From a virus: a stretch of DNA of 64,000 nucleotides. The notes under the pieces were generated by a model that was given only the letters and a program-made list of their open reading frames with translations, had not been told where the DNA came from and made no database searches. The DNA lies in IMG/VR virus record IMGVR_UViG_3300020391_000003, positions 32,001 through 96,000 of that record; one strand, given 5' to 3'. Position numbers and translations under genes: made by a program. This document shows, in pieces, positions 6,448-14,209 of this stretch (position 1 is the first letter of the stretch; every line of letters starts with the position of its first letter).

Positions 6448-7604
6448 GATACAGGATTATGAAGAGTATCATAACCTTTATAAGTTAAAGATATTGACAT
6501 TTCTCCTTCTATTGATGCATTAATCGATTCGCTAATTAATCGAACATCTCTTCCAACAAATTGATTCATAAGATCATTTGTTTTAGAGTCTTTAATTATT
6601 ATAGTAACATTGCTTTTTGGCGCAGCTTGTATTCTATCTTTTATTTCTCTTATTTCATATTCATCAACAATCATTGTGAAATTTATATCTGTTTCAATTG
6701 GATATTGAGTATCAACTTGCACTGGCTCTAAATTGGGAGTAGCGGCCTGATCTCCCGCAACCCATTGACTTCCATTTCCTTTAGGTATGGCGTAAATTGG
6801 TCTTAAATTTAAACTTCTAGAAAAACTAAAATCACTTATTGCGTCCACAGTAAAATCGTCAACATTAACTGAAATACTTGATTGATCTGCAAATTTTATT
6901 TCTGGATGCACTTGATTTATTGCTTGAGAATAGTCTGTAATAATTGTGAATGCATCTTTACCCAATCTCAATATTTTAATAGTGCTTGAACCGCTCTGAG
7001 TTACTATAACCTTAGATTCTTCTTTTAGCAGATTATATTCAAGTTGCGATATCGTCAGATTTCCATTGTTCCATTCTGTTGATTGATCAGTATCTACAGA
7101 TATAAGGCCTTCTCTCCTATTAAAATATACCAACCCATCAAAAGGGTTAAGGCTTAAATTATATCCAACTATTGTTAAATTATTTACTTGAGATGCAGTG
7201 GAATTTGATAGCACATTTTTTCCAAGTTCTCCATAAACAGTTAGATCAACATCTATATCTGGAACATCTCCAACACTACAGCTAATAGAATATCTATTTA
7301 ATCTAGCTTTTGTAAAACCGAAACCTTTAGTATCGTTATCATATAATATAGCACCACTAATTTCATTTTCATCAAATGTAAAATTACCCAAAGCATCGTA
7401 TTCTATTAAAGGATCAGAAGAAACCATTTTTCTTGATATAGAAAAATTTCCTTCTAATGGAGACTCTACAAGCGCATCTATAAATCCAACTCCAGCAACT
7501 CTTATTGGAGATTCACTTATTCCATAAGATCCATTTACATCTTGAACCCCAGATAAAGCGTATCCATTTAATACTACAGTTTGCTCATAGTTTGAATAAC
7601 TCAT
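6444..7604 (-). CDS. Tail-tube-like structural protein (paralogue)
   Basis: LSGVQDVNGSYGI, LNRYSISCSVGDVPDIDV, ISDFSFSRSLNLRPIYAI and QYPIETDINFTMIVDEY match segments of 18407-19771 and 19823-20986. Confidence 0.6.
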   Translation of the reverse strand: MSYSNYEQTVVLNGYALSGVQDVNGSYGISESPIRVAGVGFIDALVESPLEGNFSISRKMVSSDPLIEYDALGNFTFDENEISGAILYDNDTKGFGFTKARLNRYSISCSVGDVPDIDVDLTVYGELGKNVLSNSTASQVNNLTIVGYNLSLNPFDGLVYFNRREGLISVDTDQSTEWNNGNLTISQLEYNLLKEESKVIVTQSGSSTIKILRLGKDAFTIITDYSQAINQVHPEIKFADQSSISVNVDDFTVDAISDFSFSRSLNLRPIYAIPKGNGSQWVAGDQAATPNLEPVQVDTQYPIETDINFTMIVDEYEIREIKDRIQAAPKSNVTIIIKDSKTNDLMNQFVGRDVRLISESINASIEGEMSISLTYKGYDTLHNPVS

Positions 7605-10600
7605 TGCACTTCACTTAATAATCCTCCCGGCCTTTTTTCTTCAATTATTACGCCAACCACAGCATCTTTAATTTTCTTTCCTAATTCACCACCTTGATTT
7701 TCTTCTTTCATATTTCCGCCTGAATCCTGTTGATTTTGAGAAGATTCTTGTCTATTACCAGATGCATCCATTTTGATATTGATACTGATGTTATTTGTTT
7801 GACCTCCAGAAACAGATGATTCTTCTTTTTGTACTTCAGGAGAAACAGATCCTCCTTCGTAAAATTTTCCTGCGTTTATTTTATCAAGCATTGGTTTGCC
7901 CATTTGTCTTGCGCTGCTAGCCTTGATAACATATTCTCCTTCGCTTAACATTGCAGGAATTTGATCGATACCAGATTTTCCGTAGATCATGCCGCCTGCA
8001 GCGTATTTATTTATTTTACCTCCTCTTGACTGCGAATAAGGATTAAAGCCAAGTCGATTTACCATGGAATCAAATTCAGTAGGGGCTTGAAAATTAAAAG
8101 CTTCCTCAGGCATTCTTGTTATAGTGTCCGCACCCAAGCCCATTTTTCCACCAGCATCACCACCGCTAAATACAGACCCTAAAACATAAGATGTGGCTAT
8201 ACTTCCTATCATACCCAGTATTTTTCTTCTTTTTGCTTTTTTTGCTTGTCTTTCCATCTCGCGACGACGACGCTCTTCTTCTCTTTTTTGAAGTATACCT
8301 TTAAATTCTTGTGCGTCTTCTTGTAACCCTACATTTTCAGCTAGACCGCTATAGAAAAATCCAGACATTGCTCGAGACTGATAATTTCTACCAGAAATAA
8401 AAGATTCTCCACCACCAAAATTTGCAGCTAATGCAGAGCCAGGCTCTCCACCTCTGCTCATGTAAGGTATTTTACCCATACCATATTCCTGCATGGTATC
8501 TCCGCCCATTGTATACTTTGGTATTTTACCCATGCCATATTCTTGCATGGTATCTCCGCCCATTGTATACTTTGGTATTTTACCCATGCCATATTCTTGC
8601 ATGGTATCTCCGCCCATTGTATACTTTGGTATTTTACCCATGCCATATTCTTGCATGGTATCTCCGCCCATAGAATAATTAGGAATTTTTCCTCGAGCAT
8701 TTAAACTATGCATAAAGCCACCACCATATTTTTTAACCGCCTCTCTACCCATTACATATTCACCATTTGTTACCATGGCTGGCACATTTCCTCCAGAAGA
8801 ATATTTTTTAACCCCACCGCCTTGAGAAAATCCTAATGCGCCAACAGCTTGCATCGCTAATTTTTGCATCATTGCTTGTTGCATATAGCTAAGAAAATTA
8901 AGAGCTGCATCTTCTAAAGCATCACCAATACTTTTTGCACCATTGGCTGCTTCAGTCATTGCAGTTGCTAGGCCGTCAGCTAATTTACCTGGAATATTCT
9001 GCCCCAATTCATAATCCATATATTCAATTCGCTCTTTCATGCTACTCATACCTTTATCAAATCCTCTTCCAAAACTTCCAGTACCAGTTCTTTCCAGTCT
9101 ATCTTGTTTTAGTCTTTCTTTTTCTAAGGCAAGTATTGTGTTTAAAGATTCGATTTCTTTTTTGTGTTCGTTGTTTGCATTGTTTATTTTCTTTTCAATT
9201 TCTTCTAAATTTTTAATTCTTTCGGCTTCAAGTTGCTCCAGTCTATTTAATTCCGCTATTTCGTCATCACTAATCACCAAAAGGCGACTTCCTTCACCAA
9301 AAACGCCCATGTCTTTCTTTTGCCTCAAATTTTTGAGTTCTTCTTGGTCAACCTTTTGATTAATCTCTGCTCTTTTTATCTCAAGGTCCCTGATATTATT
9401 TGCCTTGTTTTCTTCAAGAGTTGCAAGTTTGGATTCTAATTCAAATTCTTTTTCAAGTATTTTAAATCTTTCTTTATCTTCTGCGCTTTGAAAACCAGCT
9501 CCAACAGCAGTTAATCTTCTTGCTTTTGCTACGCTATCATTAAATCCCCTAATTTTTTGCGCAGATCTAGTGTCTTCATCAGCCATTCTGTCTGCTCTTT
9601 TCAAATCATCTAGAATTGTTTTTCTGTCTGCAAGAATCATATTTATATTTTTTTCTCTCTCTGCTTGACTTTCAGAGCTTGTTTTCTGTTTTTCGGCTAA
9701 ATTTAAAATATTATCTCTCTTTATAATTTCAAGGTCTAAAAATTGAAGAATTGCTTCTCTTATGGGGCCTTCAGTTTTATTGTTAGTGGCTATGTCTTGT
9801 AATTTACCTTTCAATTCTTCACCACTTAAACTTCCAACTTTGTCGGTAATATCTTGAAAGCTATCTCCATCTTCTAATCCGAGCGAAGTCTTAAATACTG
9901 ATTGTATACTTTGATCTTTTCGAATGCCGCTCAATATACCCATTCTAAGTTGAGAGTCTGCGGTTTCCGCGCTTTTGGCGTAAGCTTGTTCAGCTTTGTT
10001 TAAAGCTTGAAGATATTTGTTTTGTGCCTTGAATTGATCGGTAGCCAAGCTGCCTGCTAATTTTACTTGATTTTTTAAATTGTCAGATATTTCAGAGTAA
10101 CGATCTTTTATTTCTAATTGCTTCATTGCGGCTGCTTGTTGAGCCATAATTTGAGTTTTTTGAAGATCAAGCTGAATAATGACTCCTCTAGCTTCTTTTT
10201 TCTTTTCAGCTAATATTTTGTCGTCTTCTCTTTTCATTGTTTTTCGCAAAGATTCAAACATTTGTATTCTCTCATCCTGAGTAGATTTTGAGAATTCTTT
10301 AGCATACTCTTTTCCAGTTCCCTCGAAGTCTACAGCTACTCTATCTCCGTCTTCATTTTCTTCAAACTTTTTAGCAGAAAAAATAAAATCGTCAGGTAAA
10401 GTTTTCAGAACATCACCAATATTCGATTTAACATCTGAACCAAGTTTATTTGTTAAGTCGGCCGCTTTTGCAACTTCTTTGTAATCTATTGTTGGACCGC
10501 CGCGAGCCGGTTTCATTTTATTTGCTTTAGCTTCTTCTAGATCTGCGAATTGTACTGAGAATCTCTGTGAAAAATTTTCAAGTTTATCTTTGGCACCAGG

Positions 10601-13600
10601 AAGCTGCATAAGCACACTAGCCAAAGAAGCTCCTATTTCCTCCGCCACTTTTCTTTCTGCTTCAGCTTTCTTTTCAACTGCATCCTTAGAGTCAATCAGT
10701 GCCATAGCAAAACCCCCTAATCCTCCGACAGCAGCACCTATTGCTGTACCAAGTGGTCCAAACATCATGCCCATAGATGCCCCAGTTGCAACCCCGTTTA
10801 ATGCCCCACCAGCAGCATTTCCTACAGTTCCTCCTATAGAATCTTGCATAAATCCTGCTGCCATAGGAAGACCCATCATCATTGCCATTTGAACTCCAGA
10901 GCTTCCCATTGCTCGTCCCATAGTTGTTCCACCAAATCTTGTATTTTGCCTTGAATAAGCAGCCCCCAATCCCCCTAATACGCCACCAACACCACCACCA
11001 CTCTTTGCAAATGCTTGTTGTGCAGCCAATTGTGACTCTTGCTGTTCGTAACCTAATTGTTTTAAGGCGTGAATAGTTTCTTCTTTAGTGTATTTCAATT
11101 GCCTCATAGACTCGGCAGATTCAAGCTTATCGAAATTCAATTGATTTTTATTGTGCTGATGCACTTGCATCATCCTAGTGCGGTCATTTTTTTGAACGCT
11201 CTTCATGTCTTTCATTGATTGGACTCTCTTTTGCTTTTCGATATCCAAAACAGCTTGAGACTCTCCCCTCCAAAGCTTTATCAAGCTTTCGATGACCCCT
11301 AAACCTGACAAAGAGTAATTTGGCACATATCCATTTGCTCCAAATACATCACGCAATCCATTTGGTTCGTCGGTAGTATTTGTAACTCCCAAGCCTAATG
11401 GATTTCCTTTGTTCATTAAAGCTTGGTGAGAGCCAACGCGAATTTGAGAAACAGGAACGCCAGCGCCTTTTTCGCGATTAATTGCATTGCTTAATGGATC
11501 GGCAAAGTTGGGAATATATCCATCTGCAGCTCTCCTGATGCCTCCCCCCGTTCTTGGTTTTGTTTTAAGAAATGACTCATATACGCTGCTTGGTGTTGAT
11601 TTAGAAATATAATTTAATATTTTTTTTGGAATTCCTCCAGTTTTTGCTGCAGCCAATGTATATTTTGCCTCAAGAGCATCCTTAGGGCTGCCGAAAAATC
11701 GTGATAAAACACTAGCATCTTGCCCCCTAAAATCAAAAGATTCTTGCGTATTTGGTTCGAGTCTATCCCCAATCGCAGTTCTCATTGCTGCTTCATATAA
11801 GTTTCCAATGGTTCCATTATCAACATGACTCATGACATTCGCGCTTGTAAAATTCGGCTTATCTACATCCTTAAATATATGTTTATGCATTCCTTTTGCA
11901 AATTCAGTCAGGCCCTCCTTAATCACGCCAGAAATTTGAGTTCTAGCAACTTCGTCAGACTTGCCAGCATCAATCTTTTTGATGTCGTTTTCATCAACTG
12001 GACTTATAGTATAGGTTGGCAGGGTCGCCCTTAACGTCTTACCTTTTAAGTCAGGTATTTTGAGACCAAGACGCATAGCAAGTGTCGCCTTAGCCTTTTT
12101 CGACTGTATGTCTGATATGGGTTGTGAGTATGTTTCATTTTCTGCGTTTTTGGTAGGTTTTCCCACTCCTAAAACAACCCCCATTCGGTTCATACTACCT
12201 GCAAAATATGTACCTAAATCTACAGTTGGATTTCCCTGTTTGACCTTTTGAAAAGCCTTGAGCCCAGGCCTGTCCGCTTGCCTCAGATCTTGGATCGCAT
12301 ATTGCTCCCCCACAGGCGGCTTTTTGTTAAAGTTTGGAATAAATCCACTTCCTGCATACGGATCAAATCCATGAACACTTCCAAATGCTTGCTGATAATT
12401 TTTGCCTGCTTTACTAGACAGCGGAGGCATAATTGCAGGCTGTTTCATACCCGCAAAATTTTTAACTTTTTCTGCGCTGTTATAAATAACCGAGCCCTGG
12501 CCAGGCATGCTCATCTCTCTAATGTTTCCTGCTGCATATCCTCCTTTTGCGGCTTGTTCGCGTTCTGCAAAGTTTGGAATGTGTCCGTCTGCTCGTCCTC
12601 TTCTTGGTGCCAAATTGGCTCCAAATCCTTGACGATATAAAGTAGACGCAGCTTGTTTGCTTACTGCATTTAAAACATTTGCTTCAGCAACCTGTGCCTT
12701 TAGTAAAGCTAATATAATTTTTTCTTTTTCTGTTCTAGATATATCAGTTCGCAACATTTCTTTGCTTAATGCTGCGTTTTGTCCAAACAAATTAACCAAA
12801 GAAGTTTGTATAGCTTTTTGTTTTTGCGCTTCTGTGGTTACGCCAATCAATGAACTCAAACTTTCTCTAGCATATTGAGCTGCTTTTAGAAATAGTTTAC
12901 CAAATACAGCAACAATAACAACCAATCCTGGCCCAGTAATAATATTACCCAGACCTTTTAAAAATCCGTTTGCAAATTTACCTCCAGCACTTTCTCCGTC
13001 TCCTAATAAATTGTTTGCTCCTTCTGCAACACTTTTAACCACATTGAGAATTTTTTCCATTCCTGGAGCTAATGCAATTTCACCAATTTTTGCGCTTGCT
13101 TCTTTGATTGCCAAACCAGTCTCGGTGGCCATTGCAGCCATAGTTTGTCTTAATTGTTCGTTTTTGGTGATAGCTTCATCTGTTGCGCCAGCAGAAATTT
13201 GTGTTGCATTTGCCAAAATACCATTTTGCTTTGCGGCATCGCCCAGCACAGCCTTTAAAACGTTGATTTGAAATACGCCACCAACGGTTTGCGCAATTTG
13301 AGCTTTTTGCGCCTCAGTTAAACTATCAAATGTATTTGCAAGATCAGTCAAAATTCTTTTTGCGCCCAAAGTATTACCTTCAATGTCTCTTACTGCAATT
13401 CCTAAATTTTCTAATTGATTTAAAGTATCTGTTCTTCCTATACGAGTAAAAATTGTTTTAAATGAGTTACCAATAACCTTACCACCTCGAGCAGTTTGTT
13501 GTTGAGCGGCAGTAACCAAGCCAATCAGTTCATCAATATCCACTCCAGCTCCTCTTGCAGCTGCACCAGTACGAGCAATAGCATCAGCGAAATCTTCTGC

Positions 13601-14209
13601 ACTAACAGCAAATTTAACATCTACAGCAGCAAATTTACTTACAAGTTGAGTAGTGTCTTTGATTTGATTACCATATGTATTCATAGCTGCCGTCAAAGAT
13701 TTAACAGCATTCGCAGAATCCATGCCAGTCAAACGAGTTAGAATCAAAGCATCTTTCGTACGCTTCAAAGATTCTTCCATACTTAAACCTTGACGAGCAT
13801 ATTCTGTTGCTGCATCAGCTGCAATTTTAAATGCTTGTCCAGTTTCTTTTGCTACCGTAAAAAGTCCGTCGCCAAATTTTTCTAGATTTTGAGCGCTCAA
13901 ACCCATCACAACATTGATGTCAGCCAATGCTTTTTCAACCTCCACGACATTTCTAACCATTCCCTTGAACGCATCAGCAACTCCATTGATAATTGCCATA
14001 CTTGCTCCGAATGCGATAATACGAGCATTAGCAGCTTCCATTGACTTGCTAAACTCGTCTGCACTTCGACGCATATTTCCAAGAGGCTGAGTGGCTCCCT
14101 TGTCATCCACAGTAATTTTAATTGGCCTGCGACGAATTCTGTTTACAGCTGACTGAACCGCTGCTTCAAGCGGCTGAGTATTACCGAGTACATCTACATT
14201 AATAGCCAT
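7601..14209 (-). CDS. Tape measure protein (TP901-type N-terminal domain, lambda gpH-like C-terminus)
   Basis: 2202 aa, Ala/Gly-rich helical; ATEYARQGLS, FAAVDVKFAVSAEDFADAI, IGNSFKTIFTRI; C-terminal AMLSEGEYVI...EEKRPGGLL. Confidence 0.92.
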   Translation of the reverse strand: MAINVDVLGNTQPLEAAVQSAVNRIRRRPIKITVDDKGATQPLGNMRRSADEFSKSMEAANARIIAFGASMAIINGVADAFKGMVRNVVEVEKALADINVVMGLSAQNLEKFGDGLFTVAKETGQAFKIAADAATEYARQGLSMEESLKRTKDALILTRLTGMDSANAVKSLTAAMNTYGNQIKDTTQLVSKFAAVDVKFAVSAEDFADAIARTGAAARGAGVDIDELIGLVTAAQQQTARGGKVIGNSFKTIFTRIGRTDTLNQLENLGIAVRDIEGNTLGAKRILTDLANTFDSLTEAQKAQIAQTVGGVFQINVLKAVLGDAAKQNGILANATQISAGATDEAITKNEQLRQTMAAMATETGLAIKEASAKIGEIALAPGMEKILNVVKSVAEGANNLLGDGESAGGKFANGFLKGLGNIITGPGLVVIVAVFGKLFLKAAQYARESLSSLIGVTTEAQKQKAIQTSLVNLFGQNAALSKEMLRTDISRTEKEKIILALLKAQVAEANVLNAVSKQAASTLYRQGFGANLAPRRGRADGHIPNFAEREQAAKGGYAAGNIREMSMPGQGSVIYNSAEKVKNFAGMKQPAIMPPLSSKAGKNYQQAFGSVHGFDPYAGSGFIPNFNKKPPVGEQYAIQDLRQADRPGLKAFQKVKQGNPTVDLGTYFAGSMNRMGVVLGVGKPTKNAENETYSQPISDIQSKKAKATLAMRLGLKIPDLKGKTLRATLPTYTISPVDENDIKKIDAGKSDEVARTQISGVIKEGLTEFAKGMHKHIFKDVDKPNFTSANVMSHVDNGTIGNLYEAAMRTAIGDRLEPNTQESFDFRGQDASVLSRFFGSPKDALEAKYTLAAAKTGGIPKKILNYISKSTPSSVYESFLKTKPRTGGGIRRAADGYIPNFADPLSNAINREKGAGVPVSQIRVGSHQALMNKGNPLGLGVTNTTDEPNGLRDVFGANGYVPNYSLSGLGVIESLIKLWRGESQAVLDIEKQKRVQSMKDMKSVQKNDRTRMMQVHQHNKNQLNFDKLESAESMRQLKYTKEETIHALKQLGYEQQESQLAAQQAFAKSGGGVGGVLGGLGAAYSRQNTRFGGTTMGRAMGSSGVQMAMMMGLPMAAGFMQDSIGGTVGNAAGGALNGVATGASMGMMFGPLGTAIGAAVGGLGGFAMALIDSKDAVEKKAEAERKVAEEIGASLASVLMQLPGAKDKLENFSQRFSVQFADLEEAKANKMKPARGGPTIDYKEVAKAADLTNKLGSDVKSNIGDVLKTLPDDFIFSAKKFEENEDGDRVAVDFEGTGKEYAKEFSKSTQDERIQMFESLRKTMKREDDKILAEKKKEARGVIIQLDLQKTQIMAQQAAAMKQLEIKDRYSEISDNLKNQVKLAGSLATDQFKAQNKYLQALNKAEQAYAKSAETADSQLRMGILSGIRKDQSIQSVFKTSLGLEDGDSFQDITDKVGSLSGEELKGKLQDIATNNKTEGPIREAILQFLDLEIIKRDNILNLAEKQKTSSESQAEREKNINMILADRKTILDDLKRADRMADEDTRSAQKIRGFNDSVAKARRLTAVGAGFQSAEDKERFKILEKEFELESKLATLEENKANNIRDLEIKRAEINQKVDQEELKNLRQKKDMGVFGEGSRLLVISDDEIAELNRLEQLEAERIKNLEEIEKKINNANNEHKKEIESLNTILALEKERLKQDRLERTGTGSFGRGFDKGMSSMKERIEYMDYELGQNIPGKLADGLATAMTEAANGAKSIGDALEDAALNFLSYMQQAMMQKLAMQAVGALGFSQGGGVKKYSSGGNVPAMVTNGEYVMGREAVKKYGGGFMHSLNARGKIPNYSMGGDTMQEYGMGKIPKYTMGGDTMQEYGMGKIPKYTMGGDTMQEYGMGKIPKYTMGGDTMQEYGMGKIPYMSRGGEPGSALAANFGGGESFISGRNYQSRAMSGFFYSGLAENVGLQEDAQEFKGILQKREEERRRREMERQAKKAKRRKILGMIGSIATSYVLGSVFSGGDAGGKMGLGADTITRMPEEAFNFQAPTEFDSMVNRLGFNPYSQSRGGKINKYAAGGMIYGKSGIDQIPAMLSEGEYVIKASSARQMGKPMLDKINAGKFYEGGSVSPEVQKEESSVSGGQTNNISINIKMDASGNRQESSQNQQDSGGNMKEENQGGELGKKIKDAVVGVIIEEKRPGGLLSEVQ
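8466..8671 (-). repeat. 54-bp in-frame tandem repeat, about 3.8 copies, in the tape measure gene
   Basis: Units start at 8466, 8520, 8574, 8628; encode YTMGGDTMQEYGMGKIPK; near-identical (2 mismatches in one copy). Confidence 0.95.

Follow-up and report, generated by a model that had tools for sequence, protein, structure and literature searches.

Tape measure proteins (TMPs) fill the tail tube of a phage and leave it ahead of the DNA. The presence in one such protein of a large insert with a nuclease-like series of residues raises the question as to whether the insert is a folded, functional domain and whether an enzyme is likely to be delivered to the host in this way. The protein, P0001, is encoded within bases 32001-96000 of the IMG/VR virus record IMGVR_UViG_3300020391_000003, a genome of 184,324 bp graded as complete by CheckV; this stretch of 64,000 nucleotides, the whole of the DNA analysed, is referred to here as the window. 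The original prediction for the locus had described an exchangeable effector of restriction fold bracketed by a recurrent motif. Our analysis firmly shows, by structure prediction and by comparison with relatives, a new and confidently folded family of about 230 residues that is confined to the TMPs of one uncultured phage lineage. We tentatively favour the view that this domain is a lineage-specific enzymatic module, a putative metal-dependent nuclease with a PD-(D/E)XK-type site on a derived or new scaffold.

A folded domain between two junction motifs

The insert occupies the 269 residues between the second and third copies of the recurrent motif, in good agreement with the position and the length of about 265 residues first proposed for it, the motif coordinates given at that time (12331-12350 and 11506-11525) being off by a few bases only. 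The features of the gene and of the insert are as follows, with residue numbers referring to P0001.

7601-14209 (-): TMP gene P0001, 2202 residues, from the open reading frame (ORF), PF10145, TMP PHROGs and synteny
12329-12346 (-): junction motif 2, GFIPNF, residues 622-627, by exact motif location
12248-12328 (-): variable linker, residues 628-654, predicted with low confidence, its length and sequence varying among homologues
11540-12247 (-): predicted folded α/β domain, residues 655-890, AlphaFold2 mean pLDDT 90.9 and pTM 0.84
11552-11866 (-): C-terminal core with the invariant site, residues 782-886, from alignment A4 of 24 sequences
11792-11794 (-): codon of E806 (GNLYEAA), invariant in 25 of 25 sequences, in helix 144-159 of the model
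11732-11734 (-): codon of D826 (SFDF), invariant in 25 of 25, directly ahead of the short strand 173-174
11663-11671 (-): codons of E847-A848-K849 (LEAK), acidic-x-Lys in strand 191-195
11621-11623 (-): codon of K863 (IPKK), present in all 24 sequences that reach it, in helix 206-217 after the ExK strand
11504-11521 (-): junction motif 3, GYIPNF, residues 897-902, by exact motif location

AlphaFold2 was run with alignments of 13 and of 25 sequences. With 13 sequences the pLDDT was 75.7 (85-92 in the core), the linker end of the first model (its residues 1-32) falling below 50; with 25 sequences and residues 655-890 it reached the mean value listed above, with all five models above 88, and the topology of the domain was identical in the two runs. 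In the model three long strands and helices make up the N-terminal half, and a helix of 29 residues leads from it into the C-terminal core. This core comprises the helix bearing E806, a 12-residue loop, D826 at a strand of two residues, a helix, a five-residue strand containing both E847 and K849, and three final helices, with K863 placed in the second of these. The insert had been called non-helical, which holds in the sense that it is not a coiled coil, but the predicted α/β domain is about half helix. It is also basic, with a pI of 9.6.

Conservation of the candidate active site

The series of residues that suggested a nuclease comprises GNLYEAA from residue 802 (11786-11806), SFDF from residue 824 (11729-11740) and LEAK from residue 846 (11663-11674), the distance from D826 to E847 being 21 residues. 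Conservation of the D/ExK residues among homologues had been set beforehand as a test of this E / D / (D/E)xK series, and it proved complete across the 25 sequences, confirming that the series is real. The sole invariant columns of the 25-sequence alignment are G802, E806, D826 and K849, and position 847 is acidic throughout (16 Glu and 9 Asp). The 24 sequences of alignment A4 likewise have five invariant columns (G, E, D, K and K) and one that is always acidic. The remainder of the domain is highly divergent, with a mean column identity of 19% in the 25-sequence alignment and with identities of the slot modules to the window copy ranging from 55% down to 12%.

The residues around these positions are also constrained across the 25 sequences. 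D826 has hydrophobic neighbours (F/I/L/W and F/L/V/I), the residue before position 847 is A/I/L/V/G and position 848 is A/Y/L/M/V/T. The overall pattern starts with a helix containing G-x3-E, continues with hydrophobic-D-hydrophobic at a short strand and with a strand of hydrophobic-(D/E)-hydrophobic-K, and ends with a Lys in the next helix. We consider it firmly shown, from the alignments, that this constellation of six residues is under very strong selection.

Distribution of the domain

A HMMER search with the 282-residue insert against 1.84 billion cluster representatives returned 12 proteins at E <= 0.001. Two of the matches, the repeat proteins P0010 and P0016, appear to be spurious. Those that are credible comprise TMPs 1587-2861 residues long in which the domain is similarly placed, and short fragments that run into the flanking motifs of a TMP. 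A word-indexed search with the insert found two TMPs, 99% and 51% identical, and a highly conserved query of 75 residues taken from directly after the insert led to 29 more IMG/VR loci, all of them giant TMPs. The domain was met only in TMPs or in fragments of them. Neither the insert nor the motif-delimited region of residues 542-970 had a tblastn match in 50,697 deposited phage genomes, and two alignment-based searches of a collection of 5.8 billion proteins gave no matches, though known fragments were likewise not returned by them. The source samples of several relatives are named TARA, consistent with a marine origin, and we regard the carriers as a clade of uncultured, largely marine, large siphoviruses.

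A profile of the domain core matched each of 25 distinct TMPs strongly and just once, in the module behind the second motif or its equivalent; the profile was built from 24 of these 25 sequences, which makes the match partly circular. The same result of one copy in one slot was obtained with an earlier profile of 13 sequences and with a plain regular expression for the site. The only TMP covering the slot that is without the domain is that of L036, the most distant relative covering the region. Sequence comparison indicates that the domain is a fixed, lineage-wide part of the TMP and not exchangeable cargo, as had been proposed, since an alignment of homologous TMPs that might have revealed unrelated domains in the slot revealed the same homologous domain in all 25.

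Comparison with nuclease families and folds

The PD-(D/E)XK core is a three-layer α/β/α structure of order αβββαβ in which the active-site residues follow in the order helix (E), strand 2 (D), strand 3 ((D/E)xK) and helix. The nucleases of this type (Mrr_cat PF04471, Hjc PF01870 and PDDEXK_14 PF24579) share with the TMP domain an invariant helix Glu, the h-D-h and h-(D/E)-h-K strands (h being hydrophobic) and the helix that follows. The reading of the constellation as an active site rests on Glu, Asp and Lys remaining fixed in a domain that elsewhere falls to 12-20% identity. It is further supported by the hydrophobic flanks of D826, E847 and K849, which are as in PD-(D/E)XK strands, by the canonical order of secondary structure and by the basic character of the domain. 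A language-model feature search with the 105-residue core, confined to named clusters, listed those of Tox-REase-7, PDDEXK_14, AHJR-like, Mrr_cat and Hjc together with one cluster without a common family, and all ten of the best family-bearing matches are given by the tool as sharing a family or clan, the PD-(D/E)XK clan being the source of these weak neighbours. The score of 0.77 lies below the level that the tool takes as evidence and is treated here as a lead, and the result probably reads the same motif and is hence not independent.

Other comparisons do not support an assignment to the nucleases. No nuclease family of Pfam, PHROG or NCBIfam was matched at E up to 10 by any of the 13-25 members, the scans of the insert with 13 or 25 homologues yielding scattered single-member noise only, and a single-sequence search of the PDB with the insert gave no match. 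Foldseek comparison of both models with the PDB and BFVD, together with wider fold searches, found no neighbour, although parts outside the dominant stretch were barely probed, and a search of the ESM Atlas with the whole domain gave no usable match. Comparison with Mrr_cat by hhalign returned a probability of 0.3%, a weak comparison given that the template consists of 68 close relatives with a Neff of 1.8. The predicted topology also departs from that of the PD-(D/E)XK nucleases: strand 1 is absent, the Glu helix leading to the Asp with no strand in between, the strand at the Asp is just two residues long, an extra helix separates it from the (D/E)xK strand, and the sheet draws most of its strands from the N-terminal half. 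Of the original proposal, a folded domain with conserved E/D/(D/E)xK residues is supported, whereas a restriction-endonuclease core is so far not borne out: the model, though confident and with the Glu helix, the Asp strand, the (D/E)xK strand and the final helix in the local order of that core, has no neighbour in the PDB or BFVD, and no nuclease profile is matched.

Two other matches were rejected. GldL (7sax_C), matched by profile A2 at E 0.011, is a chance match that disappeared with the more diverse profile A3 and is absent from NCBIfam. Plant lectins of hemopexin fold, matched by profiles A4 and A3 at E 0.003-0.03, represent a coincidence of motif, as the 35-residue G-x-FE...D string that is matched folds into propeller blades in the lectins and into a helix in the TMP domain.

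Junction motif and module string

The original prediction had also recognised that the insert is bracketed by a recurrent motif, and this is confirmed with two further copies present in the TMP. The module string occupies the N-terminal third of the protein in the order motif, 74-residue module, motif, linker and domain, motif, 57-residue module, motif, the outer elements being the following.

12569-12586 (-): junction motif 1, GHIPNF, residues 542-547, by exact motif location
12347-12568 (-): conserved 74-residue module between motifs 1 and 2, residues 548-621, which precedes the slot in related TMPs
11333-11503 (-): highly conserved 57-residue module after the domain, residues 903-959, by sequence comparison
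11315-11332 (-): junction motif 4, GYVPNY, residues 960-965, by exact motif location

The consensus of the motif is G-[FYH]-[IV]-P-N-[FY], and between 4 and 12 copies of it split the region behind the N-terminal domain in each related TMP. Its codons vary (CCA/CCC, AAC/AAT, TTT/TAC and ATT/GTG). A role as a DNA-level recombination joint was rejected on these grounds, and since the codons are not fixed the motif appears to be conserved as a peptide. A search of all six frames of the whole 184-kb genome with [FYH][IV]PN[FY] found four copies in the TMP and none in any other ORF of at least 80 residues, which led us to reject a genome-wide protease site. The motif probably acts as a peptide, be it for docking, as a folding boundary or as a cleavage site.

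The two flanking modules are far better conserved than the domain, and no family was assigned to either. Over the 57-residue module, 22 IMG/VR TMPs are 74-88% identical and a further 7 are 36-49% identical. These modules may dock in the tube or bind a chaperone.

Other modules are gained or lost between the same motifs in relatives, which bears out the idea of motif-delimited modularity in these TMPs. An extra module of about 95 residues bounded by the motif is present in L014, L023 and L024, and L037, L038 and L039 contain many more motif-bounded modules. Among the latter is a 164-residue module with the Walker-A sequence GPSGVGKST (L039:2693-3184 (+) and its equivalent in L037), which may be an NTPase-like module inside the TMP; its P-loop matches are weak and under the Pfam cut-offs (best E 0.0011). 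A second GxxGE/FD/KEVK module is present in L037-L039. In L039 (938-1774 (+)) and L038 (residues 308-581) it follows the triad module and has G-x-I-G-E, then FD, with K-E-V-K only six residues on, so that its spacing is closer than in the domain and more like that of canonical PD-(D/E)XK sites; it is matched weakly by the domain-core profile (E 0.14-0.2). In L030 a module of 594 residues between junction motifs (L030:131-1912 (+)) is made up largely of degenerate GSKNQ...PPQERQ repeats and looks like a low-complexity tape-measure expansion.

The tape measure gene and its context

The identification of the gene as a tape measure, already made in the original prediction, is well founded. In addition to PF10145 (E 4.1e-27) the 2202-residue ORF has 11 TMP PHROG matches (best E 1.7e-53), and it is followed downstream by genes matching minor tail protein PHROGs and tip genes. 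PF05939, PF05100 and PF13550 are encoded downstream of the TMP in syntenic relatives, which indicates a lambda-like, non-contractile tail tip. The N-terminal 440 residues are 25-28% identical to the TMPs of large Bacillus and Lactococcus siphoviruses. The gene thus combines an N-terminal PhageMin_Tail region, a position in the tail block and great length with hydrophobic Gly-rich segments, the three marks by which a TMP was judged. The remaining features of the protein are given below.

13277-13852 (-): PhageMin_Tail (PF10145) region, residues 120-311, by Pfam
12869-12967 (-): strongly hydrophobic, transmembrane-like segment, residues 415-447, with a Kyte-Doolittle maximum of 2.19 over a 19-residue window
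10685-10942 (-): Gly/Ala/Met-rich hydrophobic region, residues ~1090-1175, by composition and hydropathy
8466-8689 (-): 54-bp tandem repeat of 4.1 copies with 95% matches, residues ~1840-1917, coding for a degenerate junction motif

The tandem repeat has an 18-residue unit in which the junction motif recurs in degenerate form (GKIPKY). Five copies of the degenerate form GKIP[NK]Y are found near the C-terminus, four of them within the repeat, and it is possible that the repeat is a length-variable segment of this part of the protein. Also near the C-terminus a GG-x-[IV]PAM...GEYV segment occurs twice, at residues ~1800-1830 (window ~8700-8800 (-)) and 2063-2115 (7865-8023 (-)), the second copy matching phrog_13338 (function not assigned) at E 1e-8.

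Proposed role and alternative explanations

If the domain is a nuclease, its position suggests how it might act. Expelled with the TMP ahead of the DNA, it would reach the host envelope or cytoplasm as the genome enters. Nucleic acid of the host or of a competitor could be cut there, or the leading end of the DNA could be acted on or held. Because it is flanked by two hydrophobic segments, the transmembrane-like one at residues 415-447 and the hydrophobic region at residues ~1090-1175, the domain would come to lie on one or the other side of the host membrane as the DNA enters. An active enzyme of this kind would mean that these phages have a nucleic-acid-cutting activity in place at the point of entry before the genome arrives. 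As an early function borne by the virion it would be of a new kind, with host DNA attack, anti-plasmid or anti-competitor action, counter-defence and handling of the DNA end as candidate roles. In an extension of this idea, which we think unlikely in its full form, the N-terminal third of the TMP would be a polyprotein-like string of injected effector modules, docked or cut at G-[FYH]-[IV]-P-N-[FY], and would deliver a set of enzymes including a new-fold nuclease just ahead of the DNA. The members of such a set would be the nuclease-like enzyme in all of the relatives and the Walker-A NTPase-like and second GxxGE/FD/KEVK modules in some. Whatever its role, the junction motif offers a simple handle for dissecting the modular build of giant TMPs.

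Other explanations have to be weighed against a nuclease. As the main rival to the nuclease, the domain may be a non-catalytic structural or assembly module, which is possible if rather doubtful, its charged residues then serving as a contact between subunits or as a buried network of salt bridges or metal ions. A slender domain kept in a defined state in the tail tube could serve as a register or stop element in assembly or as a holder of the leading DNA end. Its obligatory presence and fixed position in relatives are what would be expected of a structural part rather than of cargo, and its fold matches no enzyme. Its restriction to TMPs and the two highly conserved small modules that adjoin it point in the same direction as well. 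Three acidic residues, two lysines and one glycine fixed at 12-20% identity are nevertheless more typical of an active site, and a known catalytic motif has the same h-D-h and h-(D/E)-h-K strand patterns. An enzyme of another kind, namely a new-fold hydrolase of the host envelope acting on peptidoglycan, capsule, lipid or a teichoic-type phosphodiester, would fit the muralytic domains known from other TMPs, and the lack of any nuclease family match is a further point for it. The Glu and Asp of the site are separated by 20 residues, the Glu lying in a helix, and lysozyme-type enzymes show such a spacing too. We nevertheless consider such a hydrolase quite improbable: no SLT, lysozyme, M23, NlpC/P60, Rpf-like or glycosidase family appeared in the Pfam and PHROG scans of the TMP and of the 25 homologues of the domain or among the fold matches, and an invariant (D/E)xK and a second Lys are foreign to lysozyme-type sites.

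A comparably low probability attaches to the exchangeable effector cassette, in which unrelated domains would fill the slot in relatives and be freed by cleavage at the flanking motifs. The motif does punctuate all of the related TMPs, other modules do differ in number and kind (the additional module of L014, L023 and L024, the Walker-A module and the modules of L037-L039), and TMP-related effectors whose functional domains can be swapped are described for contractile injection systems (PMC13277306). In 25 distinct TMPs, however, the slot itself is filled by homologous copies of one domain, the varying codons leave no recombination joint and no other protein of the phage has the motif. As for a chance motif in a functionless spacer, a single E/D/ExK pattern within 269 residues is not rare and could be chance. 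A chance origin is ruled out because the residues are conserved across the 25-sequence alignment, and with a confident fold prediction and invariant residues in 25 divergent homologues this explanation is refuted as far as computation shows, so that we give it almost no weight. A putative nuclease on a derived or new scaffold remains, tentatively, the reading that we favour.

Comparison with known systems

Enzymes embedded in TMPs include the Rpf-like and peptidase motifs of mycobacteriophage TMPs such as that of TM4 and the muralytic C-terminal part of T5 Pb2, and to our knowledge those described to date act on the cell wall. The domain described here resembles them in being a globular, probably catalytic domain carried in frame within a TMP, which would reach the host envelope on ejection. 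In contrast to the TM4 and T5 Pb2 type, which are wall hydrolases of recognisable families and often dispensable or variable, it matches no family or fold, has a nuclease-type motif and is fixed in its lineage. Full-text literature searches for a TMP with a nuclease or PD-(D/E)XK domain returned nothing relevant, and nothing came up on the IPNF motif.

A further parallel is found in the Sle1-type TMP-related effectors of actinobacterial contractile injection systems, which are described as TMP-like carriers with swappable C-terminal functional domains (PMC13277306). A TMP-like carrier with a modular functional domain, packed in a tail-like tube and translocated to membranes, would be common to both systems. 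The Sle1-type proteins are effectors of intracellular tail-like particles and have diverse domains (PMC13277306), whereas here a true phage TMP carries one conserved internal domain. Taking these comparisons together, the domain is probably best regarded as a functional domain embedded in a TMP, one that represents a new family and probably a new class of activity.

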